Assembly (NCBI GenBank): GCA_905234855.1
Contig: CAJOIU010000006.1
Span: forward strand, 1,893 to 65,892
Origin: an uncultured Oscillospiraceae bacterium
GTDB lineage: Bacteria > Bacillota > Clostridia > Oscillospirales > Oscillospiraceae
Reading direction: 5' to 3'
DNA: 64,000 nt
A model generated the notes under the pieces. That model searched no databases and was not told the DNA's origin. It was given only the letters and a program-made list of their open reading frames with translations. The translations under genes and the position numbers were made by a program. Positions 30,262 to 57,139 of this stretch are shown piece by piece (position 1 is the first letter of the stretch; the number at the start of each line of letters is the position of its first letter).

Positions 30262-30262
30262 C

Positions 30263-31668: not shown

Positions 31669-31698
31669 ATAATATCATATCAAGGTACGACTTGTCTA
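31669..31698 (-). promoter_or_regulatory. candidate rnf promoter
   Basis: Minus strand: TAGACA, 18 nt, TATTAT. Confidence 0.35.
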
Positions 31699-31750
31699 CA
31701 ACGGAATCCGTCAAAAACTGCAAATTCTGTCAGCCGGACTCCCGGTCAAG

Positions 31751-40477: not shown

Positions 40478-40515
40478 CGGCGCCGCCTTTTTTCGTGCTT
40501 TCCGCCGCTTCGCCG

Positions 40516-40543
40516 TTGCGTTTCTCGCATTTTATGCTATAAT
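40516..40543 (+). promoter_or_regulatory. promoter of the envelope-modification locus
   Basis: TTGCGT, 16 nt, TGcTATAAT (extended -10), about 60 nt upstream of yfhO. Confidence 0.55.
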
Positions 40544-40602
40544 AATAAATTGAGTAATTATGGAAACTGTTTCATTCCCGGCGGAAGGAGGCACGGATCG
40601 CC

Positions 40603-43344
40603 ATGCACATACCGGCACAGGAGCAAAGGCGCGGGTTTTCCGCCGCGGCAGGGATCTGCTTTTCCTCCTGCGCGCTGACGCTTTTGCTGCTGCTGGCCGC
40701 CTGCGCCATCCGCGGCCTATGGCCCTTCGGGTCGGATAACGTCGCCTATGTGGACACGGCGCAGTTTTATGTGCCAGAGTATTACAAGGTCTGGGACGCT
40801 CTGCACGGCGCGTCCGCCCGCCTGAACTGGTTTACCGGGCTGGCCGAGGGCAGCAATATGACCTTCCTCGGTCTGACGAATCCTGCAAACTACGTCTTCC
40901 TGCTCCTGCCGAGGGATCATATTCTGGAGGGGCTGACCCTCTATCTGGCGGCTTATCTGCTGCTGTGCGCGGTCACGACCTCCCTGTGCGTGCATGCCCG
41001 CTTCGGCTCGCTGCATCCCGTGTGGCAGCTCAGCCTCACGCTGATCTATGTTTTCTCCGGCTTCGTGCTGCAATACTACGCCAATTTCAACTGGATCTGG
41101 ATCGCCGCGGTGTTCCCGATCCTGATGCTCGCGCTGGAGCGTCTGCTGCGGGACGGGAAATATATCCTCTATGCCGCCGTATACGCCTATTATCTCTATT
41201 ACTCCGTGTATTTCGCCTATATGGCGACCATCTATGTGCTGCTGTTTTCCTTTGCCTACTGCGCCTTCGTGCTGCCGCGGGAGCAGCGGGGCGACCGCTT
41301 GCTGCGTCTCGGTCTGAGCACAGCGGCGGGATATGCCGTATGCGCCCGCTCATGGCTGGCCGACTCCGCGGTTCTCACCGGCACCTCCCGCTTCCAGTCG
41401 AACCTCGACACCGGGCTGCTGGCGGGCATCAGCACATGGGACATCACGAACACCCGCCATACGCTCCTCATGCTGCTTGGTACGGCGCTGCTGCTTGCCA
41501 TCCTGCTGCGGGCAGGCCGGCGCGGGCGGCTGCTGCCCCCGGAGGAGTGGGCGCGACGGCGCGGCACGGCGCGGTTTTTCGCCTTTCTCCTCGGCGCGCT
41601 CGCCCTGCCTATGGTTTTTACGAACATCGACGCGGCATGGCACTTTGGCCGATATAATTTCTTCCCCATGCGCTATGGCTATATGCTCCCGGCGACGCTG
41701 ATCGCCGCGGCAGGTCTCGCGCTGGAGCGGGAGGCCGCACGACCCGCGCCAGAAGGGGAAAAGCGGCTCGACTCGCTTCGGCTGACGGGCGCGGCAGGCA
41801 TCGCAGCGATCCTCGTGTTCCTTGAGCCGCGGCTGACGGCCTATTTCCGCGAATACGGCGCGTGCTTTCTCACGGCGCTGGGCGCGAAGCGGTATTGGCT
41901 GAGCTATTTCGCCCTGTACGCTGGCTGCGGCCTGCTTCTTATCGCGCTGTATCTTCTGCTTCTGCGGCTGAAAAACCGGCGGCTGGGCATGGGGCTCATC
42001 GCTGCCGCGCTGCTGCTCCAGCTCGGAACGAACGCCTGTGGCCTGCTCGCGCCGAGCGACGACCATACCACCACCCGGGAATACGACCCGGCCTACATCG
42101 AAACGGCGGACAGCCTCTATGAATACTTCTCCGAACAGGAGCTGTCGCCGCTCTCCCGCTTCAAAAATGCGGACAGCAGCCTGAACGCCGGGTATCCCGC
42201 CATCGCGGGCGTAAGCTCGCTGGCGAGCGTCAATTCCGCCAACTCCGCGCTGCGGCTCGGCATGTTCCGGGAGCTGGGGTATACTGTCAATTATATCCGC
42301 ATCCTTGACGTGGGCGGAACGGTCTTTTCCGACAGGCTGCTCGGGGTGGATACCATCCTCACCGCCGGAGCGCCGGACGAATCGCTCTATATCCCCACCG
42401 ATACGGTCGTGGACGGCATCCGCATAAGCCGCGCCCGCTATCCCGGCGTGATCGGGCTCCAGTTCCCCGATGGCGCGCTGGACGGCTATCTTGACGAGCT
42501 TACGCTGCCTGGGCGGCTCAACACGCTGTACGCGGCGTTCACTGGCTCCGAGGAGGCGCTGGCAGCCGCGCCGCCCTATGCTCTGACCGCCGAGGGCGAG
42601 GGCATGAAGACGTATACGCTCACCGTACCGCTGGACGAGGCGTCGTTCCTCTACCTTGCCGCCGACGCCGTGCTGGTGAATATCGCCGCGGACGGGCGCA
42701 GTATTCCCGTGCCGACGTATCAAAACACCGAAAACACCATCTATCCCGCCGCCTTCAACTCGAATCTTCTCTATCTCGGCCGCTTCGACAGCGGCACGGT
42801 GACCGTGACGTTCCTGTCGGTCGGGGACATCACGGAAGACATGCTGACGCTGACCGCGCTGCGGTGCGATCTCATCGAGCGCTTTGCCGGGGATGCGCGG
42901 CGCGATCCCGCCATGACCGCCGCCAATGACGGCGACGGAATGACCCTCACGCTGACGGCGGCGGAGAACGGCATGCGGCTGTTTCTTCCGCTGACCTACA
43001 GCCTCCGCTGGCGCTGCACGGTGAACGGCAGCCCCGTCTCGCCGGAGCGCACCGCCGGAACGATGCTGAGCATCCCTCTTCAAAAAGGCGAAAACACCGT
43101 GACTCTCGCGCGGGGCGCCGCGCCCCTGCAGCTCGACGCGGAAACTTGTATTTCGCTGGCGGGCATCCTGCTGTGCGCCGCATGGCTCGTCCTGCGGCGA
43201 CGGATGACCGTCACGCCGCCCCGGTGGGCATATACCGCGGCGCAGGGTCTTTTCGGCGCCGTCATGCTGGCCGCCGCCGGCTTCCTGTATATCGCCCCCA
43301 TACTCCTGCTGATAACACGCGGTTCCATGATCCGCTTCGGATAA
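40603..43344 (+). CDS. yfhO: YfhO-family polytopic membrane glycosyltransferase (GT-C-like)
   Basis: 913 aa. N-terminal LWPFGSDNVAYVDTAQFYVPEY is the characteristic YfhO start. Many TM helices and a large extracytoplasmic C-terminal domain. Confidence 0.75.
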   Translation: MHIPAQEQRRGFSAAAGICFSSCALTLLLLLAACAIRGLWPFGSDNVAYVDTAQFYVPEYYKVWDALHGASARLNWFTGLAEGSNMTFLGLTNPANYVFLLLPRDHILEGLTLYLAAYLLLCAVTTSLCVHARFGSLHPVWQLSLTLIYVFSGFVLQYYANFNWIWIAAVFPILMLALERLLRDGKYILYAAVYAYYLYYSVYFAYMATIYVLLFSFAYCAFVLPREQRGDRLLRLGLSTAAGYAVCARSWLADSAVLTGTSRFQSNLDTGLLAGISTWDITNTRHTLLMLLGTALLLAILLRAGRRGRLLPPEEWARRRGTARFFAFLLGALALPMVFTNIDAAWHFGRYNFFPMRYGYMLPATLIAAAGLALEREAARPAPEGEKRLDSLRLTGAAGIAAILVFLEPRLTAYFREYGACFLTALGAKRYWLSYFALYAGCGLLLIALYLLLLRLKNRRLGMGLIAAALLLQLGTNACGLLAPSDDHTTTREYDPAYIETADSLYEYFSEQELSPLSRFKNADSSLNAGYPAIAGVSSLASVNSANSALRLGMFRELGYTVNYIRILDVGGTVFSDRLLGVDTILTAGAPDESLYIPTDTVVDGIRISRARYPGVIGLQFPDGALDGYLDELTLPGRLNTLYAAFTGSEEALAAAPPYALTAEGEGMKTYTLTVPLDEASFLYLAADAVLVNIAADGRSIPVPTYQNTENTIYPAAFNSNLLYLGRFDSGTVTVTFLSVGDITEDMLTLTALRCDLIERFAGDARRDPAMTAANDGDGMTLTLTAAENGMRLFLPLTYSLRWRCTVNGSPVSPERTAGTMLSIPLQKGENTVTLARGAAPLQLDAETCISLAGILLCAAWLVLRRRMTVTPPRWAYTAAQGLFGAVMLAAAGFLYIAPILLLITRGSMIRFG

Positions 43345-43368
43345 CGACCACCCAAAAGGAGATACGAT

Positions 43369-44493
43369 ATGTTCATTCCTTTCAATGTCCCACCCGTCTG
43401 CCCGGAATCGGAGGCCTGTGTCCGGGAAGCCATCGCCTCCCATAAGATCTCCGGCGACGGCGCGTTCACCAAAAAATGTCACGCATGGCTGGAGGAGAAG
43501 ACCGGCACCGCCCGGGCGCTCCTCACCACCAGCGGCACCCACGCGCTGGAAATGGCCGCCATCCTGTGCGGTCTGGAGCCGGGGGACGAGGTGATCCTGC
43601 CGTCGTATACCTTTTCCTCCACCGCGAACGCCTTTGTGCTCTGCGGCGCAAAGCTCGTGTTCGTGGACATCCGCCCCGACACGATGAACATCGATGAGCG
43701 GCTCATCGAGGACGCGATCACACCGAAAACGAAGGTCATCTGCGCCGTGCATTACGCAGGCGTCGCCTGCGCCATGGACGAGATCATGGATATCGCCCGG
43801 CGGCACGGCCTCAAGGTAGTGGAGGACGCCGCGCAGGGCGCCATGAGCACCTATAAAGGACAGGCGCTGGGCGCCATCGGCGATTTCGGCTGCTTGAGCT
43901 TCCATGAGACGAAAAACTATTCCATGGGCGAGGGCGGCGCGCTGCTCATCCGTGACGACGATGGCCGCGCCGAGATCCTGCGGGAAAAAGGCACGAACCG
44001 CAGCCAGTTCTTCCGGGGCATGGTGGATAAATACACTTGGGTCGATTACGGCTCCAGCTACCTGCCCAGCGAGCTGAACGCCGCGTATCTCTATGGGCAG
44101 CTCCAGATCGCGGACACGATCAACGACGCGCGTCTGCACGCTTGGGCGCTGTACCGGGATGGCCTCGCGCCGCTGGCGGAGGCCGGACGGATCGTCCTGC
44201 CGTATATCCCCGAGGGGTGCATCCATAACGCCCACATGTTCTGGCTCAAGACGAAGGATCTCGCCGAGCGAACCGCCCTCATCACGTATTTGAAGGAGCG
44301 GGGCGTGAACGCCGTGTTCCACTATGTCCCGCTCCATTCCGCCCCCGCCGGGCAGCGCTTCGGCCGCTTCCACGGGGAGGATCGCTTCACCACCGCCGAG
44401 AGCGACCGGCTGGTGCGGCTGCCGATGTATTACGGCATAACGGACGACGACGTGCATACCGTGATCGAGGCCGTGCGGGCGTTTTACGCCTAA
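43369..44493 (+). CDS. wecE: dTDP-4-amino-4,6-dideoxygalactose transaminase (DegT/DnrJ/EryC1 family)
   Basis: Collinear over its full length with my recollection of E. coli WecE (from memory, not a computed alignment). Shared stretches: IPFNVPP, PSYTF(S/V)STANAFVL, VHYAGVAC, SFHETKNY (PLP lysine), REKGTNRSQFFRG.VDKYTW, NAHMF and FHYVPLH. Confidence 0.85.
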   Translation: MFIPFNVPPVCPESEACVREAIASHKISGDGAFTKKCHAWLEEKTGTARALLTTSGTHALEMAAILCGLEPGDEVILPSYTFSSTANAFVLCGAKLVFVDIRPDTMNIDERLIEDAITPKTKVICAVHYAGVACAMDEIMDIARRHGLKVVEDAAQGAMSTYKGQALGAIGDFGCLSFHETKNYSMGEGGALLIRDDDGRAEILREKGTNRSQFFRGMVDKYTWVDYGSSYLPSELNAAYLYGQLQIADTINDARLHAWALYRDGLAPLAEAGRIVLPYIPEGCIHNAHMFWLKTKDLAERTALITYLKERGVNAVFHYVPLHSAPAGQRFGRFHGEDRFTTAESDRLVRLPMYYGITDDDVHTVIEAVRAFYA

Positions 44494-44511
44494 GGAAAGG
44501 TTTCACCGACT

Positions 44512-46755
44512 ATGGCCATGTTGATCTTTTGGGGAGCCGCCTTGGCGGGACTGGTTCTCGCCGCGCTCCTGTGTATCGGCCGCCTCCGGCGGGGCGGCGG
44601 GGCGGCAGAGCTGCTGACGGACTTCGGGCTGGCCGTGCTTTCGGCGCTTGCCGTCGATTGGACGGTCGTATCCATGCTGGAGCGCCGGGTCGATCTCCGC
44701 CCGGAGACACTCTTTTCCCTGCTGGCGGAGGGGCAGCCCCAAGCAGGCAGGCTCGCCGCGCTGCTCATCGGCGTTCTCGGCTGTTTCGCGCTGTATCTGA
44801 CCCTGCGGGGCAAGGCACTGCGCCGCCGGATGAACGAAGCGTATCGGAAGGACGGCGCGCGCTGGCTGATTTCCGCCGCCGTGACGGGACTTTTTGTTCT
44901 CTGGGCGATGCGGATCACCGTCACGAGCTTCATGACGAACGACGATACCTTTGTCATGCGCGCCATCGCGGAGATTCCGGAAAACGGCCTGCGCTCCGCG
45001 GTGGGGACTTTCTCGAACATCCTGTTCTGCGGCTTGCTGTCGCTTTTCTACCGCATCGACCCGGAGGGCTGGTGGTATGCGGGCTACCATATCGCCGCCA
45101 TCGCCTTGTCTCTCACGGTCATCGGGCGCTGCGTGCTGCTGAAAACCGCCCGCCGCGGCTGGCCGGTGCTTTGCGGCGTTATGATCCACGCGCTGCTCTG
45201 CGCGGGTGTGTTCGCCTACTCGCTCTCGGAGCTGTCCTTCACCGTGACCCCCGCCATCGTCGGCTCCGCCGCCGTCGCGCTCATGCTCTGCCGGAGCGAT
45301 ATCGAGCGCCGCGCCGGACGGATCGCCTCGGATATCGCGGGCGTCGTCCTCATGCTGCTGTGCTACCTCCAGCGCTACGCCACCGGGCAATGCCTGCTGT
45401 GCTTCTGGGGTCTTGCCGCCGCCTATCAGGCGCTTCGGCTCCTGCTGCGGCGGGATGGGCATTGGAAGGGCGGCCTGCTTGCCATCTGCGCCTCGGTGCT
45501 GGCGGTGTTCGCGCTCATCAGCGTCTCCCGCTCCGTCATCCGGGAAAACTCCCTCTCCGCCGGTTCCGATTATTCCAACGCCGAATACTACCGCTCCATG
45601 GTCATGGACTACCTCATCGGCGGTCTATCGGATGAACAGCTTGAAGCGGCGGGACTGCCGCCGGAGCTGAGTCTGCTGCTGCGCAACTGGTATTTCATGG
45701 ACGAGCGCATCAATACCGACACCTTCCGCACCATCACGGAGATGTATGGCAGCGATACGCTTTCCGATGCGGCGGAAACGGCGAAATCGCTGCCGGACAG
45801 CCTGTCGGAGCTTTTCACTTCCATCGCCGAAAGCACGCGGATGCGCACGCGCGCGCTGATCGCCATGGCGCTGCTTCTGCTCTGCGCCGCCGCTTTTACG
45901 CGGTATGGGCGGAAATACTGGCCGGAATTTCTGTGCGCCGTCTGCACCATGGGCGGAGCGTTCCTGCTGTCGCTATATCTTGTGATGGACGGCCGCTTCC
46001 CGATCCGAGCCTTCCTCGTGATAGCGCTGCCTGCCGTCACCGCGCTGCTGCTGATGGCGCTCTCCGCGCCGGAGGAGCCGCGGCCGATGTCTCGGGGAGG
46101 ACGCTGTGCTCTTATCGGCGTATGCGCCGTGCTGGTGCTTTCGATCTGCGTTTTTGCCCGGCAGTCAGTGCGGAACGTGCCTTACAGCAAGGACTACGCT
46201 GACCGCGCCATGGTCTTTGAGAGCCAATGGGCCACGGAGGAATATGCCTTCGACCATCCCGATATCTTTTTTGTGACGAACTTCTTCGAGCAGAACCTCG
46301 ATCCCTTCCACGGCGGGACATATCCCGACAACATGTCCCTTTGGGGCGGCACGGGCGTCACCGCCTCGTCGAACCGCCGATATGCGGACGCCTTTTTCCG
46401 GGACGACGTTCGGTTTATGTGCGAAAACCCCGGCATGATCCTTTTCGTGCTGCAATATCTGACGCTGGACAACGGTCCCGTACAGGCCGCGATGGACGCG
46501 AGCCTCACCTCGAACATCTTCGTATACGATCTGACGCGGATCCGCCCCGCCGACGGCCGCGGCGGCTGGTATGAGCAGGACGGCATGACCTATTATTTCC
46601 GGGACGGGCAGGCGCTCACCGGCACGCAGGTCATCGACGGAGAGACCTACGAATTTGCCCCCGCCGGCGCCGCCGCCCGGATGAACGTCCTCCGTGAGGA
46701 GGATCGCACCCTCTACACCACGAATGCCTATGCGCTTACGGAGGCCGCGGAATGA
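44512..46755 (+). CDS. polytopic membrane protein with a C-terminal cell-wall-binding (choline-binding-type) repeat
   Basis: About 500 aa of TM-rich sequence, then a soluble domain ending in GWYEQDGMTYYFRDGQALTGTQVIDGETYEF (a CW_binding_1-like repeat). Confidence 0.7.
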   Translation: MAMLIFWGAALAGLVLAALLCIGRLRRGGGAAELLTDFGLAVLSALAVDWTVVSMLERRVDLRPETLFSLLAEGQPQAGRLAALLIGVLGCFALYLTLRGKALRRRMNEAYRKDGARWLISAAVTGLFVLWAMRITVTSFMTNDDTFVMRAIAEIPENGLRSAVGTFSNILFCGLLSLFYRIDPEGWWYAGYHIAAIALSLTVIGRCVLLKTARRGWPVLCGVMIHALLCAGVFAYSLSELSFTVTPAIVGSAAVALMLCRSDIERRAGRIASDIAGVVLMLLCYLQRYATGQCLLCFWGLAAAYQALRLLLRRDGHWKGGLLAICASVLAVFALISVSRSVIRENSLSAGSDYSNAEYYRSMVMDYLIGGLSDEQLEAAGLPPELSLLLRNWYFMDERINTDTFRTITEMYGSDTLSDAAETAKSLPDSLSELFTSIAESTRMRTRALIAMALLLLCAAAFTRYGRKYWPEFLCAVCTMGGAFLLSLYLVMDGRFPIRAFLVIALPAVTALLLMALSAPEEPRPMSRGGRCALIGVCAVLVLSICVFARQSVRNVPYSKDYADRAMVFESQWATEEYAFDHPDIFFVTNFFEQNLDPFHGGTYPDNMSLWGGTGVTASSNRRYADAFFRDDVRFMCENPGMILFVLQYLTLDNGPVQAAMDASLTSNIFVYDLTRIRPADGRGGWYEQDGMTYYFRDGQALTGTQVIDGETYEFAPAGAAARMNVLREEDRTLYTTNAYALTEAAE

Positions 46756-47870
46756 ACAAAAAAAAACTCGCCGTTATCGGCGCGAACGAGTTTCAGAACC
46801 CGCTGATCCTCAAGGCGCAGGAGCTGGGCTACGAGGTCCACGCCTTCGCTTGGGAGGCGGGCGCCGTCGGCGAGACCACCGCCGATGTGTTCCACCCCAT
46901 CAGCATCGTAGAGAAGGAGGCCATCTGGGAGGAATGCCGCGCCATCGGCATAGAAGCCTGCTGCTCCATCGGCTCCGACCTTGCCACGCATACCGTGAAC
47001 TATATCCAGCGGAAGCTGGGAAAGCCCTGCAATCCTGAGATCACGGACACCGTCGCCACCAATAAATTCGAGATGCGGCGTGCCTTTGAGGCCGCGGGCG
47101 TGGCCTGCCCGGGCTATCGATGCGTTTCCGCTGCTCCCTCCGAGGCGGAGCTGGCGGGCATGCGCTATCCCATGATCGTGAAGCCCACCGACCGCTCCGG
47201 CAGCCGCGGCATCTTCAAGGTATCGGATTACGCCGCGCTGTGCGCCGCCGTACCGCAGGCCATCGAAAGCTCCTTCGAAAAGCGCGCCGTCATCGAGGAA
47301 TATATTGACGGCCCCGAATATAGCTGCGAGGGCATATCCTTCGAGGGCAAGCATCACATTCTCGCGCTGACAAAAAAATTCACCACCGGCGCGCCCCATT
47401 TCATCGAGACGGGACACGAAGAGCCCTCCGACATCCCGCTCGAGGCGCAGGAGGCGGTGAAGGCGCAGATCCGCCGCGCCCTCGATGCGCTGCAGATCCG
47501 CTATGGCGCGAGCCACGCGGAGTTCAAGCTCACGCCGGAGGGCGAAGCGCGCATCATCGAGATCGGCGCGCGCATGGGCGGTGACTGCATCGGCTCCGAC
47601 CTTGTGTACCTCTCCACCGGGCTGGATTTCACCGCCATGGTGATCGACGCTGCCTGCGGCCGCGAGCCGGATCTCACGCCGAAGCGCGCCCCCGCCAAGG
47701 CTTCCATCCGCTTCATCTTTACCCGCGAGGATCGCGAGGCGCTCGACGCGCTCCGCCGCGCCGCGCCGGATACCATATGGCGCGCCGAATGCGACGAGGA
47801 CGCCCTCTCCGAGGCCGTGACCGACAGCTCCAACCGCCACGGTTACTGGATCACCGCGGAGCCGCTTTGA
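46752..47870 (+). CDS. ATP-grasp ligase (classical pre-ATP-grasp plus ATP-grasp, L-amino-acid-ligase/PurK-like)
   Basis: ATGA overlap with the upstream gene. KKLAVIGANEFQNPLI (Rossmann-like N domain), YPMIVKPTDRSGSRGI, EEYIDGPEYS and EIGARMGGD. Confidence 0.8.
   Translation: MNKKKLAVIGANEFQNPLILKAQELGYEVHAFAWEAGAVGETTADVFHPISIVEKEAIWEECRAIGIEACCSIGSDLATHTVNYIQRKLGKPCNPEITDTVATNKFEMRRAFEAAGVACPGYRCVSAAPSEAELAGMRYPMIVKPTDRSGSRGIFKVSDYAALCAAVPQAIESSFEKRAVIEEYIDGPEYSCEGISFEGKHHILALTKKFTTGAPHFIETGHEEPSDIPLEAQEAVKAQIRRALDALQIRYGASHAEFKLTPEGEARIIEIGARMGGDCIGSDLVYLSTGLDFTAMVIDAACGREPDLTPKRAPAKASIRFIFTREDREALDALRRAAPDTIWRAECDEDALSEAVTDSSNRHGYWITAEPL
46758..46766 (+). repeat. A9 homopolymer at codons 3-5 of the first ATP-grasp gene
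   Basis: ATG AAC AAA AAA AAA CTC, a run of nine A in a GC-rich genome. Confidence 0.9.
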
Positions 47871-47914
47871 ACCGAAAATCCTGTATTTTAAACATAAAGA
47901 AAGGATCGAACATT

Positions 47915-49102
47915 ATGAAAAAGCTCATGGTACTGGGCGCCGGCTTCCCGCAGGCGCAGCTCATAAACGCCGCGAAGGAGATGGGCTATCGCACCGTCGT
48001 CTGCAGCATCCCCGGGGATTATCCCGGCTTCTCGTGCGCCGACGAGGTCGCCTATGCCGATATCTCCAGCCCCGAGGAGGTGCTGCAGGCGGCGAAGGAT
48101 TTCCACGCGGACGGCATCGCCACCTGCTGCCTCGACACGGGCGTGCGCGCCCTCGGCTATGCCTGCGAGAAGCTGGGCTATCCCGGACTGAGCGAGACCG
48201 CCGCCATCCGCAGCGCTGATAAGTGGCAGATGAAAAACGCCTTTATGGACGCGGGCGTCAACACCGCCCGCTGCTATCAGGTAACGAGCCGGGAGAGCCT
48301 CGGGGAAGCCCTTGGCAAGCTCGTGCTCCCGGTCGTCGTGAAGGCCGTGGATCTTCAGGGCAGCAAGGGCGTGTATATCTGCCGCACGGCGGAGGAGGCC
48401 TTCGCCGCCTTCGACGAGGCCATGCGCCTGACCCGTCGGGATTACTGCATCGTGGAGGAATTTATCGAGGGCAACGAGCTCGGCGCGCAGGCCTTCGTAT
48501 ACAAGGGCGAGATCGTGTTTGTCCTGCCCCACGGCGATAACACCTATATGAGCAAGACAGCCGTTCCCATCGGCCATTATGTTCCCATCGACGCGAGCGA
48601 GAGCGTTATCGAAGCTGCCAAGGAGCAGTCCGAGAAGGCCATCCGTGCCCTCGGTCTCGACAACTGCGCGGTGAACATCGATCTCATCGAGCGGGATGGG
48701 AAGATCTACGTCATCGAGCTGACCGGCCGCGCGGGCGCCACCGCCTTGGTGGAGCTGGTGAGCATCTACTACGGCATGGACTATTTCAAGATGATCGCCG
48801 CTATGGCCATGGGGGACGATCCGCTCGCCATCTTTAACGCCCGGGACGGCAAGGCCGTGGCAAACGCCTCCCGGATGCTTCTCTCAGAGAAGTCCGGCGT
48901 GGTGAAGCGCATCGAAAACACCGTCCCCATGGACGAGCATGTGTATGATCTCACCCTCATCATCAAGGAGGGCGACACCATCAACAAATTCACGAACGCC
49001 AAGGACCGTATCGGGCAGGTCATCGTCTCGGGCAAGACGGCGCAGGAGTGCCTCGACCGCATCGACGAGATCCTTACCCAAATCAAGATCGAGGTTGAAT
49101 AA
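47915..49102 (+). CDS. ATP-grasp ligase, paralogue of 46752-47870
   Basis: RBS AAAGAAAGGA. KKLMVLGAGFPQAQLI, LPVVVKAVDLQGSKGV, EEFIEGNELG and ELTGRAGAT. Confidence 0.8.
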   Translation: MKKLMVLGAGFPQAQLINAAKEMGYRTVVCSIPGDYPGFSCADEVAYADISSPEEVLQAAKDFHADGIATCCLDTGVRALGYACEKLGYPGLSETAAIRSADKWQMKNAFMDAGVNTARCYQVTSRESLGEALGKLVLPVVVKAVDLQGSKGVYICRTAEEAFAAFDEAMRLTRRDYCIVEEFIEGNELGAQAFVYKGEIVFVLPHGDNTYMSKTAVPIGHYVPIDASESVIEAAKEQSEKAIRALGLDNCAVNIDLIERDGKIYVIELTGRAGATALVELVSIYYGMDYFKMIAAMAMGDDPLAIFNARDGKAVANASRMLLSEKSGVVKRIENTVPMDEHVYDLTLIIKEGDTINKFTNAKDRIGQVIVSGKTAQECLDRIDEILTQIKIEVE

Positions 49103-49107
49103 CTGCT

Positions 49108-50070
49108 ATGATTACCGTTTCCGTAGCCATCCCCTGCTATAAATCCGCTCTGACGATCCCCTCGGTCGTCAACGAGATCCGAAACACGCTCAGCAAGCGG
49201 GAGGGGTATGATTATCAGATCATTCTGGTGAACGATTACCCGGACGACAGCACCTTCGACGTGATCGCCTCTCTCTGCAGCGCCGATCCGAAGATCATCG
49301 GCGTGAACCTCTCGCGCAACTTCGGCCAAACCACGGCAAAAATGGCCGCGCTGCCCTATGTCACAGGGGACGTGCTGGTGTATATGGACGACGACGGACA
49401 GCATCCCGCCGACCAGATCTTCAAGCTGGTGGATAAGGTAATGGAGGGCAGCGATCTCGTCTATGCCCGGTTCCCCCATAAAAAGCACTCGCTTTTCAAG
49501 CGCTTCACGAGCTGGATGAACTCAAAGATGCTGGAGCTGAACGGCTCCAAGCCGAAGGGCATCTCCATTTCCAGCTATCTCGCGCTCAACCGGGTCTCGG
49601 TAGAGGCGCTGAAAAAATACAAAAGCCCCTTCCCGTCCATGGGGGGCTATCTCTCCCATGTCGTGCGCAGGGTCGCCAATGTGGATCTGGAGCACCGCGA
49701 CCGGCTGGCCGGCAAATCGAACTATACGCTGAAGAAGCTTCTGAACCTGTGGCTGACGGGCTTTACGAATTTCTCCACGGTGCCGCTGCGCTTCGCTTCG
49801 TATCTCGGAGGCGGATGCGCGCTGGCTGGCTTCGTCTACACCATCGTGGTCATCGTCAAAAAGCTCATCAATCCCTCCGTCCCCGTCGGCTACACCACCA
49901 GCATCGCTCTCCAGCTCATCATCGGCGGCGTCATCATGTTCATCCTCGGCCTGTGCGGGGAATACATCGGCCGCATCTATATGACCGTGAGCGATATGCC
50001 CCAGTATGAGATCCGCGAAACGATCAACGCGCCGGAGAAAGAGAAGGAGACAAACCGTTATGAGCAGTAA
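49108..50070 (+). CDS. GT2 polyprenyl-phosphate glycosyltransferase (GtrB/ArnC/CsbB-like)
   Basis: VAIPCYKS, LVNDYPDDST, SRNFGQ, DDDGQHP, then FSTVPLR and two C-terminal TM helices ending in GEYIGRIY. This is the same architecture as GtrB. Confidence 0.85.
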   Translation: MITVSVAIPCYKSALTIPSVVNEIRNTLSKREGYDYQIILVNDYPDDSTFDVIASLCSADPKIIGVNLSRNFGQTTAKMAALPYVTGDVLVYMDDDGQHPADQIFKLVDKVMEGSDLVYARFPHKKHSLFKRFTSWMNSKMLELNGSKPKGISISSYLALNRVSVEALKKYKSPFPSMGGYLSHVVRRVANVDLEHRDRLAGKSNYTLKKLLNLWLTGFTNFSTVPLRFASYLGGGCALAGFVYTIVVIVKKLINPSVPVGYTTSIALQLIIGGVIMFILGLCGEYIGRIYMTVSDMPQYEIRETINAPEKEKETNRYEQ

Positions 50071-51133
50071 GCTGCGCCCGCTGTATGACGGGATCTATAT
50101 GGGGATCGACGTAGGTCTGCTGGCCATAAACGCCGCCCGCGGCATGCGGAAGCGGGCCCGCGGAGCCGAACCCGCGCCCGGGCTGGACGCCGAATACAAA
50201 ACCTCGATCCGCCCCTATTGGCGGCAGTTCCGCGTCGGTGTGCCGAAAAAATACTGGTTCCGCTTCTGGGGCGGCGACCCCCGCTTTATCCCCGGCAACC
50301 TCTGGTATCGCCGGATCGTTCCCCATTTCAATACCGTCCTGTTCGCACAGGCGCTGCAGGACAAATGCATGCATAACGTCTATGTACCGGAGATCCGCCG
50401 CCCGGTCACCGTGGTCAAAAACGTCGCCGGGCATTTCTGCGCGGACGATCTCTCCCCGCTGACCGAGGAGGAGGCCATCGCCCGCTGCCATGACCGGGGG
50501 CGGGTGCTGATAAAGCCCTCTGTCGGCAGCGGCGAGGGACACAATATCCGTTTCTTCGACACGGACAGCGTCACGGACGAGGAGCTGCGCTCGCTCTTCC
50601 GGCAGTATAAGCGCAATTTCATCGTACAGGAGAAGCTGGCGCAGCATCCGGTGCTCGCGGCGCTCAACCCCAGCTCGCTCAATACCATCCGCATCATGAC
50701 CTTCCTGTTCCGCGGCGAGGTGCATATCCTCTCCGCGATCCTGCGGGTCGGCGGCGGCAAGAGCGAGGTGGACAATTTCGCGCAGGGCGGCTTCCAGCTC
50801 ACGATCCTGCCGGACGGACGCCTCGACCCGCATCCCGCCAGCAACGGCATGGCGCATATGACAGCGGAGGAGAAGGCCGAGCTCGTCCGCCGGTTCGAGA
50901 ACGTGCAGATCCCCTCCTTCGACCGGGTGATCGCCGCCGTGCGGGACGCCGCGCTGAAAATGCCCCATTTCGCCATCCTCGGCTGGGACATCGGCGTCGA
51001 CCCGGAGGGGGAGCCGACGCTCATTGAGTATAACGTCATCCCCGGCCAGAACCAAGGCACCTGCGGCCCCACCTTCGGCGAGCTGACGGACGCGGTGCTG
51101 GAAGACGTATTCGGAAGGAGAACCCGTTCATGA
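50060..51133 (+). CDS. sugar-transfer-associated / TupA-like ATP-grasp amidoligase (paralogue 1)
   Basis: PYWRQFRVG...DPRFIP N-terminal module. LIKPSVGSGEGHNI, QHPVLAALNPSSLNTIRI, LRVGGGKSEVDNFAQGG and GWDIGVDPEGEPTLIEYN. Confidence 0.75.
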   Translation: MSSKLRPLYDGIYMGIDVGLLAINAARGMRKRARGAEPAPGLDAEYKTSIRPYWRQFRVGVPKKYWFRFWGGDPRFIPGNLWYRRIVPHFNTVLFAQALQDKCMHNVYVPEIRRPVTVVKNVAGHFCADDLSPLTEEEAIARCHDRGRVLIKPSVGSGEGHNIRFFDTDSVTDEELRSLFRQYKRNFIVQEKLAQHPVLAALNPSSLNTIRIMTFLFRGEVHILSAILRVGGGKSEVDNFAQGGFQLTILPDGRLDPHPASNGMAHMTAEEKAELVRRFENVQIPSFDRVIAAVRDAALKMPHFAILGWDIGVDPEGEPTLIEYNVIPGQNQGTCGPTFGELTDAVLEDVFGRRTRS

Positions 51134-52224
51134 ACTATGCCGCAGGCCGCCGGATCTATGATCGCGTATACTACCGCCTCGAAAGCTGGGTGAAGGCCGC
51201 TGCTCTGAACGCCTCGGCTCGCCGCGCTCTGCGGGGCTTCCGGCCGGACAAGGTCTTCTGGGACAATTTCCGGCAGAACGTCCGCCCATATTGGGCGCAG
51301 TTCGGCGTGCGCGTCCGCCCGCTCTGGTTCAAGCGCTATTATCAGATGCACGGCGGCCTCGACCCCCGGCTCATCCCGGACGATATCCATCTGCGGAAGG
51401 TCATCCCGTTTTTTGACAAGGATATGTATATCCGCCCGCTGGTGGACAAAAACCTGCACGCGCTGATGTTCCCCGGCGTCAAACGGCCGGAGACCGTCTT
51501 CAAGCATATCGACGGGCGGTATACCGAGGACGACTTCACGTCCCTGTCCCGGGAGGAAGCCCTCAGCCGCTGCCTTGCGCCCGGCCGATTTATCGTAAAA
51601 CCCACGGTGGACACGGGGCAGGGCAAGGGCATTCGCTTTTTCTCCGGCGAGGACGGCCGCGAGGCGGTGGAGACGCTGCTCGCCTCCTTTGACAGCAGTG
51701 ACTATATCGTGCAGAAGGTCGTGCGTCAGCATCCTGCCATGGCGCATTTTAACCCCGGCTGCCTCAATACCCTGCGGGTCAACACCATGTATTTCGAGGG
51801 CAAGGCGTACATCCTCACCTCCATCCTCCGCATCGGCGCGGGCAGCAGCGAGGTGGACAACGTCTCGCAGGGCGGCTATCAGGTCACCGTGCATCCGGCG
51901 GACGGAACACTGGACAGCACGGCCTATACCCACTACGCGGGCATAGAGAAATATGTGGACGAGACCGACCGGGGCATCCGCTTTGAGGGGCTGACGATCC
52001 CCTGCTGGGACAAGATCAGCGCCGCTGCGCTGCGTCTGTGCGAATATATGCCCCATCTGAAGTACATCGGCTGGGACTTCGCGGTGGACGAAACGGGCGA
52101 CGTGGTGCTGGTAGAGTTCAACTGCCAGCTCGGCCAGAATCAAGAGACCTGCGGCCCCACCTTGGGGGATATGACAGAGCCGGTGCTGCGGGCGATCTAC
52201 GGAAAGAAAGAGGACAAGGCATGA
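51130..52224 (+). CDS. sugar-transfer-associated / TupA-like ATP-grasp amidoligase (paralogue 2)
   Basis: ATGA overlap. PYWAQFGVR...DPRLIP, IVKPTVDTGQGKGI, QHPAMAHFNPGCLNTLRV, LRIGAGSSEVDNVSQGG and GWDFAVDETGDVVLVEFN. Confidence 0.75.
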   Translation: MNYAAGRRIYDRVYYRLESWVKAAALNASARRALRGFRPDKVFWDNFRQNVRPYWAQFGVRVRPLWFKRYYQMHGGLDPRLIPDDIHLRKVIPFFDKDMYIRPLVDKNLHALMFPGVKRPETVFKHIDGRYTEDDFTSLSREEALSRCLAPGRFIVKPTVDTGQGKGIRFFSGEDGREAVETLLASFDSSDYIVQKVVRQHPAMAHFNPGCLNTLRVNTMYFEGKAYILTSILRIGAGSSEVDNVSQGGYQVTVHPADGTLDSTAYTHYAGIEKYVDETDRGIRFEGLTIPCWDKISAAALRLCEYMPHLKYIGWDFAVDETGDVVLVEFNCQLGQNQETCGPTLGDMTEPVLRAIYGKKEDKA

Positions 52225-53198
52225 CGCCCATCGAATATATCGGCGAGATACGCAAGGTGCTTTCGGAGCTGTCCGAGACGACAGGCTATCCTGTGTCCCG
52301 GCTGTTCCGCTCCTTCCTGCGGTGCTATATCACCAAGCGCGCGGAGGTCAACGAGTTCCGCAGCCTGCGCTTATACGAGCGTTCCTCGCTGCTGGTGCGG
52401 GAATACCTGCTGCAGCATGAGATGGAGGCCTACAGCGATCAGCTCAACATCGACATGACGGAGGAGGATTACCTCGAGATCTCCGATAAACACCTCTTCA
52501 ATCGGAACTTCGCGCCCTTCGTCCATCGCCGCTGGCTGTATGCGCCGGAATGCACCGCGGAGGAGCTGGCTGCGTTCCTGAAAAGCACCGACGCATTTCT
52601 CGTGAAGGAATGCCGGGGGATGCAGGGACACGGTATCCAGCGCTTCGAAAGCAAGGATATCGATCCGACCGCCTTTTGGGAGGAATACCGCAGCCAAAGC
52701 GTCCTGCTGGAGACCTTCATCCGGCAGCATCCCGCCATGGCGGCGCTGAACCCCACGTCCGTCAATACGATCCGGCTGATCGCGGCCCGCAAAAACGACG
52801 ACATCTGTCTCATCGGCGGCGGTCTGCGGGTCGGCGGCGCGGGACAGTTCGTGGACAACTATCACAACGGCGGCGTGGCCTATCCCCTCGATCTGGAAAC
52901 AGGCATCGTCACCGGCCGCGGCTATGACCACGAGGGACGACCCGTACTGCGCCACCCCACCACCGGGCATATCATGCCGGGCTTCGCGGTGCCGCATTGG
53001 GCGCAGGTATTGGAAACCGTGCATCGCGCCGCGACGATCCTTCCCCATATCGGCTATGTGGGCTGGGATATCGCCGTCACGGAGGACGGCGCGGAGCTCA
53101 TCGAGGGAAACGTGAACTACCCCGGCAACAACGTGATCCAGCTCGACGGCCCCGGAGCTCTCAAGCGTCTGACGGATTTCATCCAAAAGACATCATGA
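52221..53198 (+). CDS. sugar-transfer-associated ATP-grasp amidoligase (paralogue 3, different N-terminal module)
   Basis: ATGA overlap. LVKECRGMQGHGI, QHPAMAALNPTSVNTIRL, LRVGGAGQFVDNYHNGG and GWDIAVTEDGAELIEGN. Confidence 0.75.
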   Translation: MTPIEYIGEIRKVLSELSETTGYPVSRLFRSFLRCYITKRAEVNEFRSLRLYERSSLLVREYLLQHEMEAYSDQLNIDMTEEDYLEISDKHLFNRNFAPFVHRRWLYAPECTAEELAAFLKSTDAFLVKECRGMQGHGIQRFESKDIDPTAFWEEYRSQSVLLETFIRQHPAMAALNPTSVNTIRLIAARKNDDICLIGGGLRVGGAGQFVDNYHNGGVAYPLDLETGIVTGRGYDHEGRPVLRHPTTGHIMPGFAVPHWAQVLETVHRAATILPHIGYVGWDIAVTEDGAELIEGNVNYPGNNVIQLDGPGALKRLTDFIQKTS

Positions 53199-53216
53199 AC
53201 TACAGGAGACTGCGCC

Positions 53217-54350
53217 ATGCGAACGAAACGTCAACAGGCATACGATAAGTTCATATACTGCTTTCCCTTCGATGTGTACAATTTCTTCGCCGACCTGCGC
53301 AACCTGCGCCGCACGATGAAATACCGGGCGGGGAAGGAATTCCGGGAAAACTACCGCAAGGTAGTCGTACCCTATTGGCGGCAGTTCGGCGTCCGGCCGC
53401 CGCGGCTTTGGTGCAAGCATATGTACCACCTGACGGGCAGCCTCGATCCGCGCTATATCCCGAACCCGATCCATTACCGCAATATCATTACCTACTTCGA
53501 CGATCCGTCCTATGAGCATGTGATGGAGGACAAGAACCTCTACAGCGTGCTGTTCCCCTCCGTCAAGCGCCCGGAAACGATCTGCAAGCATTTCGCCACG
53601 ACCATCTACGGCAACGCCCCGGATCACTATACCGACGACGATTTTACGCCGCTCTCCCGGGAGGAAGCCGTTCGGCGCTGCCTTGCCGGCGGAAAGTTCA
53701 TCATAAAGCCCACCTGCGACACGGGCGGCGGCTCCGATGTGAAGAGCTTCTCCTCGGAGGACGGGGCGGAAGCGATCGAAGCGCTTTTCGACTCCTACCG
53801 CGGCGTGGATTTTATCATCCAGCGCTTTGTGAAGCAGCATGCTGATCTTGCCCGGCTCAACGATTCGAGCCTCAACACCATGCGCATCGTCACGATGGTT
53901 TTCCATGAGAAGCCGTACCTTCTCTCCGCGATCCTGCGGGTCGGCCATCAGGGAAGCCCGGTGGACAATTATTCCTCCGGCGGGTATCAATGCACCATCC
54001 TGCCCGACGGGACCCTTGACCGCCTCGCCGCCACCAAGGTCTCCGGCGTTGACGAATATGTGGAGGAAAACGAAAACGGCCTCCGCTTTGAAGGCATCCG
54101 CGTCCCCAGCTGGGACGCTGCCCAGAAGCTGGTGATGGAGCTGGCGGTGAAGCTGCCGCACCTCAAGTACATCGGCTGGGATATCGCGGTGGACGAAGAC
54201 GGCGATCTCGTTCTCATCGAATTCAACTGCCATATCGACCAGAACCAAGAGACCTGCGGCCCCACCTTCGGCGATATGACCGACGAGGTTCTGGCGGACG
54301 TGTTCCGCGACCGGATCGAAAAACGCAAAGGCAAGAAAGCGCGCGGATAA
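53217..54350 (+). CDS. sugar-transfer-associated / TupA-like ATP-grasp amidoligase (paralogue 4)
   Basis: PYWRQFGVR...DPRYIP, IIKPTCDTGGGSDV, QHADLARLNDSSLNTMRI, LRVGHQGSPVDNYSSGG and GWDIAVDEDGDLVLIEFN. Confidence 0.75.
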   Translation: MRTKRQQAYDKFIYCFPFDVYNFFADLRNLRRTMKYRAGKEFRENYRKVVVPYWRQFGVRPPRLWCKHMYHLTGSLDPRYIPNPIHYRNIITYFDDPSYEHVMEDKNLYSVLFPSVKRPETICKHFATTIYGNAPDHYTDDDFTPLSREEAVRRCLAGGKFIIKPTCDTGGGSDVKSFSSEDGAEAIEALFDSYRGVDFIIQRFVKQHADLARLNDSSLNTMRIVTMVFHEKPYLLSAILRVGHQGSPVDNYSSGGYQCTILPDGTLDRLAATKVSGVDEYVEENENGLRFEGIRVPSWDAAQKLVMELAVKLPHLKYIGWDIAVDEDGDLVLIEFNCHIDQNQETCGPTFGDMTDEVLADVFRDRIEKRKGKKARG

Positions 54351-54372
54351 AGGCCGCAGGAGCGTCCTCTCT

Positions 54373-55941: not shown

Positions 55942-55961
55942 CAGAAAGGAAGAGATCCGTC

Positions 55962-57047
55962 ATGGCCTTCGAGCTATCCACCTTTGCCTATCATGCCGTC
56001 GATCAATACCGCTTGGCTTATCACAACCGCGACCTGCTGCGCTGGGAAAAGAAGGTCTGCCGCGCCCATCCCGAATGGGCGCCGCTGACCGCGGCGGAGC
56101 TCGCCGAGATCCGGCCCCGGGATCGCTGGGGCTGCAAGCTTTTCAAAAACATGGCCGGTACCACCGAGAATACCCGCTGCTTCATTACAGAAGCGCCGTT
56201 TCGCACCCTCATCCTTCCGATGCTCAATCCCCTCAACCACCGCAGCAACAGCGACGGCTTCGGCACCCTGTTTTCGGATAAGAATTACAGCGAGCTGTTC
56301 ATGCCCGGCATGACGTTTCCGAAAACGCTGCTCTACCGCATCCACGGGGAATACTACGACGCAAAGCGGCGGCACATCCCCGCGGCGGCAGCGCTTGACC
56401 AGCTTCGCGGTCATGACCGGCTCGTCTTCAAGCATTCGACGGACACCGGCCACGGCACCGGCGTAGTGCCCGTGCAGGCGGAGGATTTCGCTGCGCAGCT
56501 CGATTACTCCCAGAACTATCTCGTGCAGGAGCTGATCCGCCAGCATGAATCGCTTGCGTATTTCAATCCCTCCTCGGTGAATGCCATCCGTATCAACACG
56601 CTGTTTTGGCGCGGGCATGTGTATGTCCTCGGCGGCATCCTGCGCATCGGTGCGCCCGGCGCCTTCTGCGACCATGAGAGCATCGGCAAAAACGCCTATC
56701 TCTCCATCGCCCTCGCGGAGGACGGCACGATCCTGCCCCATGCCGTGGACGTGGACAACTACTACGCTTATGACACCTGCCGCGGCATCCCCATCCAAGG
56801 CCGCATCCCCGCGTATGAGGAGATGAAGCGCAGCGCCGCCGCCGCCCATGAGAATTATCCCGGCTACGGGCTGATCGCGTGGGATTTCACCGTCGGCGAG
56901 GACGGCCGTCCCATCTGCGTCGAATTCAACACCGTCTATCCCGGCCCGGTGGGCACCCAATGCGCTCTCGGCCCGGTATTCGCCCAAAAGAGCGTCGAGG
57001 GCGTGCCGCTCTTCGATGAGCTGATGGCCGCGGTCAAAAAGAAATAA
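55962..57047 (+). CDS. sugar-transfer-associated ATP-grasp amidoligase (paralogue 5, divergent)
   Basis: LVFKHSTDTGHGTGV, QHESLAYFNPSSVNAIRI, LRIGAPGAF and AWDFTVGEDGRPICVEFN. It lacks the VDN..GG motif of the other four. Confidence 0.7.
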   Translation: MAFELSTFAYHAVDQYRLAYHNRDLLRWEKKVCRAHPEWAPLTAAELAEIRPRDRWGCKLFKNMAGTTENTRCFITEAPFRTLILPMLNPLNHRSNSDGFGTLFSDKNYSELFMPGMTFPKTLLYRIHGEYYDAKRRHIPAAAALDQLRGHDRLVFKHSTDTGHGTGVVPVQAEDFAAQLDYSQNYLVQELIRQHESLAYFNPSSVNAIRINTLFWRGHVYVLGGILRIGAPGAFCDHESIGKNAYLSIALAEDGTILPHAVDVDNYYAYDTCRGIPIQGRIPAYEEMKRSAAAAHENYPGYGLIAWDFTVGEDGRPICVEFNTVYPGPVGTQCALGPVFAQKSVEGVPLFDELMAAVKKK

Positions 57048-57051: not shown

Positions 57052-57080
57052 GATGCCCCCGATCGCGGATCGGGGGCATC
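57052..57080 (+). terminator. stem-loop after the last gene of the locus
   Basis: gatgcccccgatc-gcg-gatcgggggcatc, a 13-bp stem with no clear T-tract. Confidence 0.5.
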
Positions 57081-57092
57081 CTAATAACAAAA

Positions 57093-57116
57093 GGGGTTCG
57101 GCAATGGCCGAACCCC
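57093..57116 (-). terminator. terminator of paralogue 3
   Basis: ggggttcggc-aatg-gccgaacccc, followed on the minus strand by TTTTGTTATT. Confidence 0.6.
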
Positions 57117-57139
57117 TCGGTTTATAGATGCTGCGGAGA

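Follow-up and report, generated by a model that had tools for sequence, protein, structure and literature searches.

What might a bacterium build with seven ATP-grasp ligases that are encoded among the parts of a lipid-linked glycosylation route? The question is raised by an operon of an uncultured Oscillospiraceae bacterium (GenBank assembly GCA_905234855.1), found in a stretch of 64,000 nucleotides of contig CAJOIU010000006.1 that is called the window here. According to the list of open reading frames of the window, twelve co-directional plus-strand genes occupy positions 40603-57047 (Table 1). On an identical contig from a metagenome (L001, ENA ERZ28573574), genes called independently are again these twelve, with unchanged starts, which bears out the tight packing noticed in an earlier, sequence-only reading of this DNA. 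With these starts, neighbouring genes are separated by 24, 18, 44, 5, 18, 22 and 20 nt or overlap, three times by 4 nt and once, at the GT2/ST1 junction, by 11 nt. By comparative genomics, the twelve genes form one conserved functional unit, and the operon is a real, uncharacterised variant of multi-component transmembrane glycosylation. In our judgement the chances are about even that it produces an amino sugar on a lipid carrier, which is aminoacylated by ATP-grasp ligases, exported and attached to the cell surface.

Table 1. Features of the operon and of its borders in the window (aa, amino acids)
Feature	Coordinates	Strand	Basis
Promoter-like element: TTGCGT, 16 nt, TGcTATAAT	40516..40543	+	read from sequence
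YfhO-family GT-C glycosyltransferase, 913 aa	40603..43344	+	PF09586, 160.8 bits
WecE orthologue, predicted dTDP-4-keto-6-deoxy-D-glucose 4-aminotransferase (product dTDP-Fuc4N)	43369..44493	+	NCBIfam, PDB matches
Polytopic protein, 747 aa, predicted GT-C fold, C-terminal wall-binding (CROP/choline-binding-type) repeats	44512..46755	+	AlphaFold, Foldseek
AG4, classical ATP-grasp ligase, L-amino-acid-ligase-like	46752..47870	+	ATP-grasp_4 81 bits, ATP-grasp_3 49.8 bits
LAL/PurD-like ATP-grasp ligase with LAL_C2 domain	47915..49102	+	LAL_C2 55.4 bits (cut-off 29.4), GARS_A 53.8 bits
GT2, ArnC/GtrB/PgfS-type polyprenyl-phosphate glycosyltransferase	49108..50070	+	PF00535, 85.8 bits
ST1, ATPgrasp_ST ligase 1, directly after GT2	50060..51133	+	PF14397, 113.5 bits
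ST2, ATPgrasp_ST ligase 2	51130..52224	+	PF14397, 127.3 bits; 37% identical to ST1
ST3, ATPgrasp_ST ligase 3, short form, helical N-terminal domain	52221..53198	+	PF14397, 152.2 bits
ST4, ATPgrasp_ST ligase 4	53217..54350	+	PF14397, 113.2 bits; 39% identical to ST1
MOP/PST (Wzx-type) flippase, 522 aa	54373..55941	+	Polysacc_synt PF01943, 41.2 bits
ST5, ATPgrasp_ST ligase 5, most divergent	55962..57047	+	PF14397, 65.9 bits
Pair of strong hairpins that separate the operon from the convergent gene downstream	57052..57118	.	folding versus shuffles

Multi-component systems of the YfhO/CsbB type are established (PMC8035078; PMC5836110). CsbB/GtcA/YfhO, GtlA/GtcA/GtlB and GacI-J/GacK/GacL all combine a GT2 of GT-A fold that makes a C55-P-sugar, a flippase, and a GT-C enzyme that performs the transfer outside. 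The same three components were recognised among the genes of the operon, as an ArnC/GtrB-type GT2, a Wzx-type flippase and a GT-C enzyme with a candidate Asp motif. The GT2 gives full-length matches to the PgfS (154 bits) and ArnC (150 bits) models of NCBIfam. Its best solved relatives are three ArnC structures (top 9hwj, 137.6 bits), followed by GtrB sll0501 of Synechocystis (124.6 bits), and hydropathy analysis places two transmembrane helices near its C-terminus (232-250 and 266-284), as in the ArnC/GtrB class. At the family level, this enzyme is predicted to load a sugar onto undecaprenyl phosphate. The flippase shows hydropathy peaks over its whole length and would, again at the family level, flip the lipid-linked sugar; the operon contains no gene for a GtrA-type flippase. 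A precedent for a Wzx-type protein in this position is GacK, which has been proposed to flip C55-P-GlcNAc (PMC8035078). Consequently, the choice of a large MOP transporter, taken in the sequence-only reading as fitting a bulky cargo, is no evidence of one. In YfhO, for which no solved homologue was found by sequence, the hydropathy peaks extend from the N-terminus to about residue 483 and resume at about residue 846 towards the C-terminus, with a long peak-free stretch between them.

The extracytoplasmic transfer had earlier been assigned to YfhO only, and this has to be revised, as the 747-aa polytopic protein also seems to adopt a GT-C fold. Its family is small, with 62 relatives among 5.8 billion proteins, and a precomputed Pfam domain is available for one of the 62; the protein itself matches no Pfam family above threshold. 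Its AlphaFold model has a predicted local distance difference test (pLDDT) of 90.7 and a predicted template modelling score (pTM) of 0.90, and the top Foldseek matches of the model in the PDB are mostly GT-C enzymes: ArnT 5ezm (E 5e-4), PglB, Pmt4, STT3, EmbB/C, AftD and ALG3. An invariant aspartate, D144, is located in a TNDD motif just past the helix 114-135. The C-terminal part of the model matches the TcdA CROPs and CbpF/CbpJ. The wall-binding repeat announced in the sequence-only reading is thus supported by the structural model, and stays sub-threshold in Pfam (20.5 bits). We model this protein as a second GT-C-fold transferase, belonging to a new family with wall-binding repeats. With this fold, the operon would therefore encode two extracytoplasmic GT-C-fold enzymes, not one. 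Both YfhO and the 747-aa enzyme are expected from their families to act outside the membrane, and the repeats suggest closeness to wall polymers.

As to the acceptor, the wall is suggested by the wall-binding repeats of the 747-aa enzyme. A different acceptor is offered by the Pgf system of Streptococcus mutans (PgfS, PgfM1, PgfE, PgfM2), which likewise combines a GtrB-type GT2 with two YfhO-type transferases (bioRxiv 10.1101/2022.10.10.511621 and PMC12041528). On this alternative, which concerns the acceptor only and is otherwise compatible with our interpretation, the YfhO-type and GT-C enzymes would O-glycosylate surface proteins with the decorated sugar, in regions rich in Ser/Thr, instead of modifying teichoic acids or wall polysaccharide. 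Among the NCBIfam models, YfhO is indeed best matched by PgfM1 and PgfM2 and the GT2 by PgfS, but all of them are far under the equivalog cut-offs (46 versus 1400, 41 versus 1500 and 154 versus 500 bits, respectively), and the operon has no counterpart of the PgfE epimerase and has ligases and an aminotransferase that Pgf lacks. A secreted protein without known domain is encoded convergently with the operon (719 aa, positions 57140-59299, minus strand; N-terminal signal-like peptide, no Pfam match). It was considered as a conserved acceptor and rejected, since it was not found near the sibling loci described below. With the wall-binding repeats also speaking against it, we hold protein glycosylation of the Pgf type to be quite unlikely.

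The sugar is the best-defined part of the presumed product. WecE aligns with the Escherichia coli WecE structures 4piw/4zah over its full length (528 bits, residues 2-370) and is therefore an orthologue and not a generic DegT protein; it scores 597 bits with NF008687 (cut-off 375) and 595 bits with TIGR02379. At the level of orthology, it is predicted to make dTDP-Fuc4N from dTDP-4-keto-6-deoxyglucose. Five sibling loci carry a gene for an RmlB-type 4,6-dehydratase (Pfam) between those for YfhO and WecE, and together with the WecE score this strengthens the presumed link to a dTDP-4-amino-4,6-dideoxyhexose. The operon thus shares a true WecE orthologue with the Fuc4NAc branch (WecE, WecD, WecF) of enterobacterial common antigen synthesis. 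However, WecD, WecF, WecA priming and a Wzy polymerase are all absent: Pfam detected no acetyltransferase, GT56 or PGT domain in the operon, and WecE is the only element in common. No acetyltransferase, priming phosphoglycosyl transferase or further glycosyltransferase was detected by Pfam among the twelve proteins, in agreement with the earlier statement that a WecD-type N-acetyltransferase is missing. Furthermore, the sugar is predicted to be placed on undecaprenyl phosphate by an ArnC-like enzyme, whereas the enterobacterial antigen is assembled as a trisaccharide linked to undecaprenyl pyrophosphate.

In its sugar chemistry the operon resembles the Arn pathway, which places L-Ara4N on lipid A (ArnB, ArnA, ArnC, ArnD, ArnE/F, ArnT). 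There too, a DegT transaminase yields a 4-amino sugar nucleotide, the amine is N-acylated (a step that we presume for the operon) before an ArnC-type enzyme loads the sugar onto undecaprenyl phosphate, and a GT-C enzyme transfers it outside. The likeness extends to individual proteins, ArnC being the best solved match of the GT2 and ArnT the best structural match of the 747-aa protein. The operon differs in the use of a dTDP-hexose instead of a UDP-pentose and of ATP-grasp ligases in place of formylation. No ArnA, ArnD, ArnE/F or ArnT-family domain was found by Pfam in the twelve proteins, the ArnB and ArnC models of NCBIfam are matched far under their cut-offs (184 versus 631 and 150 versus 529 bits), and lipid A is not the acceptor, because the host is Gram-positive. 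The operon is therefore not a member of the Arn, enterobacterial common antigen or Pgf systems, the defining components of which are absent or far under the cut-offs. By analogy, it would work like CsbB/GtcA/YfhO and GacI/K/L, with a sugar chemistry like that of Arn. The CsbB, Gtl and Gac systems move a plain monosaccharide (GlcNAc, Gal or Glc); to such a scheme the operon adds an aminotransferase, seven ATP-grasp ligases and a second GT-C enzyme, and it is hypervariable between species. The literature searches returned nothing that combines YfhO with ATP-grasp enzymes, or ATP-grasp with undecaprenyl and GT-C, and no described system that joins a GtrB/ArnC-type GT2 and YfhO to ATP-grasp ligases was found; the sequence-only reading likewise knew of no characterised system of this composition.

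The ligases are the most unusual part of the operon. Profile searches (matches to PF09586, NF008687, PF00535, ATP-grasp_4, LAL_C2, PF14397 and PF01943) bear out the family assignments of the sequence-only reading with one correction. None of the seven ligases matches the TupA-like family PF14305 at E <= 0.01, and the TupA-like identity was rejected. An ATP-grasp fold is supported for all seven by Pfam and for ST3 by structure prediction as well, and no membrane segment was seen in any of them by hydropathy. The five ST proteins all exceed the PF14397 cut-off of 31.4 bits. They are only 23-39% identical pairwise, and all five retain invariant Lys, Asp and E-x-N positions, as expected of active ATP-grasp enzymes. 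No solved structure of the ST family was found by sequence. ST3, which has a weak match to the RimK-related model TIGR02291 (45 bits), was modelled by AlphaFold with a pLDDT of 95.5 as an all-helical N-terminal domain followed by an ATP-grasp core. The top Foldseek matches of this model are RimK, PsnB, ArgX/LysX, PurK, glutathione synthetase and Ddl (E about 1e-7 to 1e-8), with a probability of 1.00 for RimK, LysX/ArgX, PsnB, GshB and Ddl. From these sequence and model comparisons, the ST ligases appear to be RimK-like ATP-grasp enzymes and not TupA-like ones.

The ST family is large: when 1.84 billion proteins were searched with a profile built from the five PF14397 proteins of the window, about 9,300 cluster representatives scored E <= 1e-10. 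Tandem ST-ST fusions of 750-1100 aa are numerous among these relatives. One protein of 1564 aa combines two ST domains with PGA_cap (poly-gamma-glutamate capsule) and BspA-type leucine-rich repeats, and another fusion includes a methyltransferase domain. Domain fusions were considered as a clue to the ST substrate and are not decisive; most are ST-ST tandems.

The two classical ligases are closer to enzymes of amino acid ligation. The best solved relative of AG4 is the L-amino acid ligase (LAL) BL00235 (3vot, 87.8 bits). The protein encoded at 47915-49102 possesses both an ATP-grasp core and a LAL_C2 domain, the domain pair of an LAL-type enzyme. It matches PDB 4dim with 440 bits, a structure deposited as a phosphoribosylglycinamide synthetase in a record without assigned function; in view of the operon context, 4dim is probably misannotated and would be a sugar-amine or amino-acid ligase.

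To place the operon in a comparative context, a profile of ST1, ST2 and ST4 was used to scan species-representative genomes, and the proteins of the window were mapped onto the 47 loci obtained, which are identified here by L numbers. Nearly all are from Bacillota, and the closest belong without exception to uncultured Oscillospiraceae of herbivore guts, the related metagenome-assembled genomes coming from rabbits or ruminants. The same locus family is present in at least 12 species-level genomes of Oscillospiraceae with conserved gene order and co-occurrence; a gene-neighbourhood survey of this kind had been proposed in the sequence-only reading. These sibling loci consist of a constant left part and a variable right part. 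The left part encodes, in this order, YfhO, in some loci RmlB, WecE, a membrane protein, WbqC or AG4, LAL, GT2 and ST1. YfhO orthologues (48-52% identical) open the loci and WecE is 71-83% identical. The slot after WecE is occupied by the 747-aa protein and/or by two other polytopic families without Pfam match, seen in L009, L010, L012, L016 and L049 (e.g. L010:4603-5967 and L016:4926-6548). Their members are of about 450 and about 530 aa, have roughly 6 to 10 hydropathy peaks and are 44-57% identical within each family. AG4 orthologues (69-74%) are found in L009, L010, L016 and L049, and WbqC takes the same position in six loci (L007, L008, L011, L012, L013 and L039), an alternation that speaks for our interpretation. 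WbqC, presumably named after the O121 O-antigen cluster, has no solved structure detectable by sequence, and the literature search gave passing mentions only. The LAL ligase is present in all sibling loci as an allele of either about 70% or about 45% identity, the latter always trailed by a hexapeptide acyltransferase. GT2 is among the best-conserved proteins of the locus family (58-74%) and is directly followed in every sibling locus by an ST1 orthologue (49-57%).

The right part contains zero to four further ST genes, GT2/GT1 glycosyltransferases, LicD phosphotransferases, a flippase and a second YfhO. Flippase orthologues are mostly 53-61% identical (44% in L015), and the succession of flippase and ST5 recurs in L049 and L027, with ST5 orthologues of 55-56%. 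The ligases share this variable region with glycosyltransferases and LicD and therefore probably act on the same intermediate. Since ST genes are partly exchanged there for GT2/GT1 and LicD genes, the same scaffold would yield different decorations. The window is the extreme, ligase-only version, with seven ligases and no further glycosyltransferase. The operon thus appears to be one allele of a hypervariable, serotype-like surface-glycoconjugate locus of Oscillospiraceae and not a fixed pathway.

Could the ligases be unrelated to this glycoconjugate? In such a composite cluster they would serve variation of the peptidoglycan stem or cross-bridge, or make a small peptide exported by the MOP protein, next to an ordinary three-component decoration by YfhO, WecE and GT2. 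ATP-grasp ligases, namely Ddl and the cross-bridge D-Asp ligases, do build parts of peptidoglycan, free dipeptides are products of LAL-type enzymes, BacD and BL00235 are among the solved relatives of AG4 and the LAL/PurD-like ligase, and a gene for a VanY D-Ala-D-Ala carboxypeptidase lies nearby (59341-60162). The VanY gene is, however, on the minus strand and is not conserved with the locus. The gene arrangement speaks further against a composite: the genes of GT2 and the flippase are set among those of the ligases, stop codons overlap with the starts of following genes, GT2 and ST1 are adjacent in every sibling locus, and sibling ST genes lie in one variable region with glycosyltransferase and LicD genes, as would be the case for one glycoconjugate. 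ST ligases also recur beside sugar aminotransferases, including inside a capsule locus. The interleaving, the overlaps, the GT2-ST1 adjacency and the common variable region argue that the ligases act with the glycoconjugate machinery, and we find a composite cluster very improbable. The assembly of the peptidoglycan stem peptide (MurC-F, Ddl, MraY, MurJ) is for the operon a functional analogy only. The Mur ligases have another fold, the carrier is undecaprenyl pyrophosphate, and the chain starts from a lactyl carboxylate, whereas the evident handle in the operon is the 4-amino group.

More distant loci share elements of the operon. The combination of a DegT aminotransferase with ST1 and ST3 is seen repeatedly in other Clostridia and in Tissierellia, namely in loci of Tissierella, Christensenella, Peptoniphilaceae and Lachnospiraceae. 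In the one of these loci that was analysed closely, from a metagenome-assembled genome of Tissierella praeacuta (L017:2733-14637), a classical capsule locus with CpsC/D-like, CpsB and Bac_transf genes additionally encodes a DegT aminotransferase, a GNAT-PALP fusion, a PylC-like ATP-grasp protein, an ATPgrasp_ST protein and an octopine/opine-dehydrogenase-like protein. By its gene content, this is probably another uncharacterised amino-acid-on-sugar module, in a species that has been cultured. In L049, a gene of the ornithine cyclodeaminase/mu-crystallin family (L049:4713-6038, 196.9 bits) lies between the ATP-grasp genes and GT2, which hints at the synthesis of an unusual amino acid for use by the ligases. 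On a 216 kb contig (L003:5195-11134; ENA ERZ15610158 NODE_15), a full-length flippase orthologue (56%) and an ATPgrasp_ST protein (41% to ST3) are encoded among genes of the mobile-element type, for an Mrr nuclease, an N6/N4 methyltransferase, a DEAD/SNF2 helicase, YodL and a protein with an RNA-polymerase alpha-CTD. This pair may represent mobile serotype-converting cargo, comparable to phage-borne gtr clusters.

How would the components work together? We propose that dTDP-4-keto-6-deoxyglucose is supplied by RmlA/RmlB encoded elsewhere and aminated to dTDP-Fuc4N by WecE, as its orthology suggests. One or both LAL/PurD-like ligases would then couple an amino acid to the 4-amino group, in the way that PurD couples glycine to a glycosylamine. 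At the same time, this acylation would draw the transamination forward, an effect that N-formylation has in the Arn pathway and N-acetylation in the synthesis of enterobacterial common antigen. ArnC takes an N-acylated 4-amino sugar and loads it onto undecaprenyl phosphate, and from its family the GT2 of the operon would transfer the N-acyl sugar in the same manner. The five soluble, divergent RimK-like ST ligases would each add one further amino acid or amine at the cytoplasmic face, to a nucleotide-linked or lipid-linked intermediate, most likely by activating the free carboxylate of the growing chain. The Wzx-type flippase would carry the product outward, and YfhO and/or the wall-binding GT-C enzyme would transfer it to a wall polymer or a surface protein. 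The genetic context agrees with the logic of the sequence-only reading, in which a sugar is aminated, N-aminoacylated, loaded onto undecaprenyl phosphate, flipped and transferred by a GT-C enzyme; the peptide, its length and the acceptor (wall polymer, LTA or protein) are what we infer.

On one point this scheme departs from that reading, which had taken the free 4-amino group as a plausible acceptor for the stepwise addition of amino acids. Sibling loci with a hexapeptide acyltransferase keep up to five ST ligases, and therefore a free sugar amine or N-terminal amine is not a universal growth point. RimK and LysX activate a carboxylate on the acceptor, and the RimK/LysX-like fold of ST3 fits a carboxylate better. 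For these two reasons we weakly favour growth from a free carboxylate, for instance of Asp or Glu attached through its other carboxyl, over growth from a free N-terminus.

The same observations can be turned against a chain. The ST ligases might amidate carboxyls or add alternative single substituents, giving a heterogeneous sugar with one or two small amides. To our knowledge, Cj1438 is the only biochemically characterised ATP-grasp enzyme of a surface glycan. In Campylobacter jejuni HS:2, Cj1438C links the C6 carboxylate of glucuronate with an amine and thus forms, as is proposed here, an amide bond on a surface glycan, and it is encoded with a GT2, to which it is in fact fused (PMC11800379). 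Known glycans also bear single amide-linked amino acids: O antigens carry glycine, N-acetyl-glycine (O121), L-alanine, N-acetyl-L-serine and allo-threonine, and O121 of E. coli, with N-acetyl-glycine on Qui4N, offers a 4-amino-4,6-dideoxyhexose with an amide-linked amino acid (PMC7685785). In addition, the fold of ST3 is nearest to the acceptor-carboxylate activators RimK and LysX, and siblings with an N-acyltransferase retain their ST ligases. However, Cj1438C is a single ligase of the TupA-like family, whereas the operon has five PF14397 and two classical ligases and no uronic-acid gene. The amino-acid-bearing O antigens (clusters of the vioA/wbqC type) differ from the proposed product in that a single amino acid is part of a Wzx/Wzy-built repeat unit on undecaprenyl pyrophosphate. 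According to Pfam, the operon has neither a uronic-acid pathway gene nor a second glycosyltransferase, and therefore provides no sugar carboxylate. Five paralogues only 23-39% identical, all catalytically intact by their residues, argue for five reactions and not for redundancy, and the tandem ST-ST fusions fit successive steps. Single amides are plausible for sibling loci and harder to apply in the window, where we judge them unlikely.

If the ligases do act in succession on the amino sugar, the boldest version of our proposal is a defined oligopeptide of up to seven residues, formed without ribosome or non-ribosomal peptide synthetase. It would be built by ATP-grasp enzymes on an undecaprenyl-monophosphate-linked 4-amino sugar, flipped by the Wzx-type protein and grafted en bloc onto the wall by GT-C enzymes, with modules swapped between species, possibly by mobile elements, to give serotype diversity. 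We put this version forward tentatively and regard it as possible but doubtful.

Several points weigh against our interpretation. The Foldseek support for a GT-C fold in the 747-aa protein is consistent but modest (best E 5e-4, TM-scores 0.33-0.46). The literature search found no paper that mentions PF14397/ATPgrasp_ST, and all carriers of the locus are uncultured metagenome-assembled genomes. As many as five ST ligases persist in loci that encode the hexapeptide acyltransferase (L011), which makes the anchoring point and the direction of growth uncertain. RmlA/RmlB were not found among the open reading frames of the window scanned with Pfam, the scan having covered part of them. Finally, seven ligases are set against one sugar, for which a linear heptapeptide is one possibility besides branching, alternative substrates and partial redundancy.

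The borders of the operon are well delimited. The upstream chromate-transporter gene is closed by a terminator-like hairpin with a T-run (40466-40487), and the promoter-like element comes next. This element, which agrees with the single promoter postulated in the sequence-only reading, has a perfect and extended -10 at 40538-40543 and a weak -35 (TTGCGT, 40516-40521, 3/6 consensus matches), owing to which it was missed by the consensus scan. The ATG at 40603 is preceded by the ribosome-binding site GGAAGGAGG. Within the operon, the consensus scan for internal promoters was at chance level (6 found versus 6.5 expected). The stem-loop described earlier at the 3' end proved to be two strong hairpins (57052-57080 and 57091-57118; minimum free energy of the region -51.3 kcal/mol, z = -6.6), matched by none of 200 shuffles; neither has a clean T-run on the plus strand. 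No RNA family of Rfam reached threshold in the window. The GC content by codon position of the operon (GC3 0.79-0.84) matches that of its flanks. L013 has the same upstream chromate transporter, and the chromosomal position therefore appears to be conserved. A recent horizontal transfer of the operon was considered and rejected on these two grounds.

The flanks of the window encode Rnf, FeFe-hydrogenase, ABC transport and the chromate transporter. Genes for NADH-dependent FeFe-hydrogenase subunits and the Rnf complex cluster (13127-16674 and 27830-31723) fit a strictly anaerobic host of the Clostridia, such as Oscillospiraceae. After VanY, on the minus strand, two CobW-family GTPase genes (60208-62303), one fused to a DUF1980 C-terminal domain, resemble a metal-chaperone pair. 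Positions 5553-12913 encode a series of large proteins that are sparsely annotated or not annotated at all (452, 697, 618 and 587 aa). The 452-aa protein has a weak transglutaminase-core match, that of 618 aa contains a Cthe_2159 carbohydrate-binding domain (235.9 bits) and that of 587 aa has none; these may be surface proteins.

Oscillospiraceae are an abundant and dominant family of gut anaerobes, the envelopes of which are almost unstudied. If our interpretation is true, it would provide a first function for the large ATPgrasp_ST ligase family, with its roughly 9,300 cluster representatives, show that amino acids can be built onto the undecaprenyl-phosphate-sugar donors of YfhO/GT-C systems, and add a new GT-C family with wall-binding repeats. 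The oligopeptide route, if true, would give the Gram-positive envelope a second pathway that resembles stem-peptide assembly. Although no carrier of the locus has been cultured, the soluble ligases could be reconstituted from synthetic genes. A peptide-bearing surface sugar that varies between species would bear on phage receptors, immune recognition by the host and resistance to cationic peptides.

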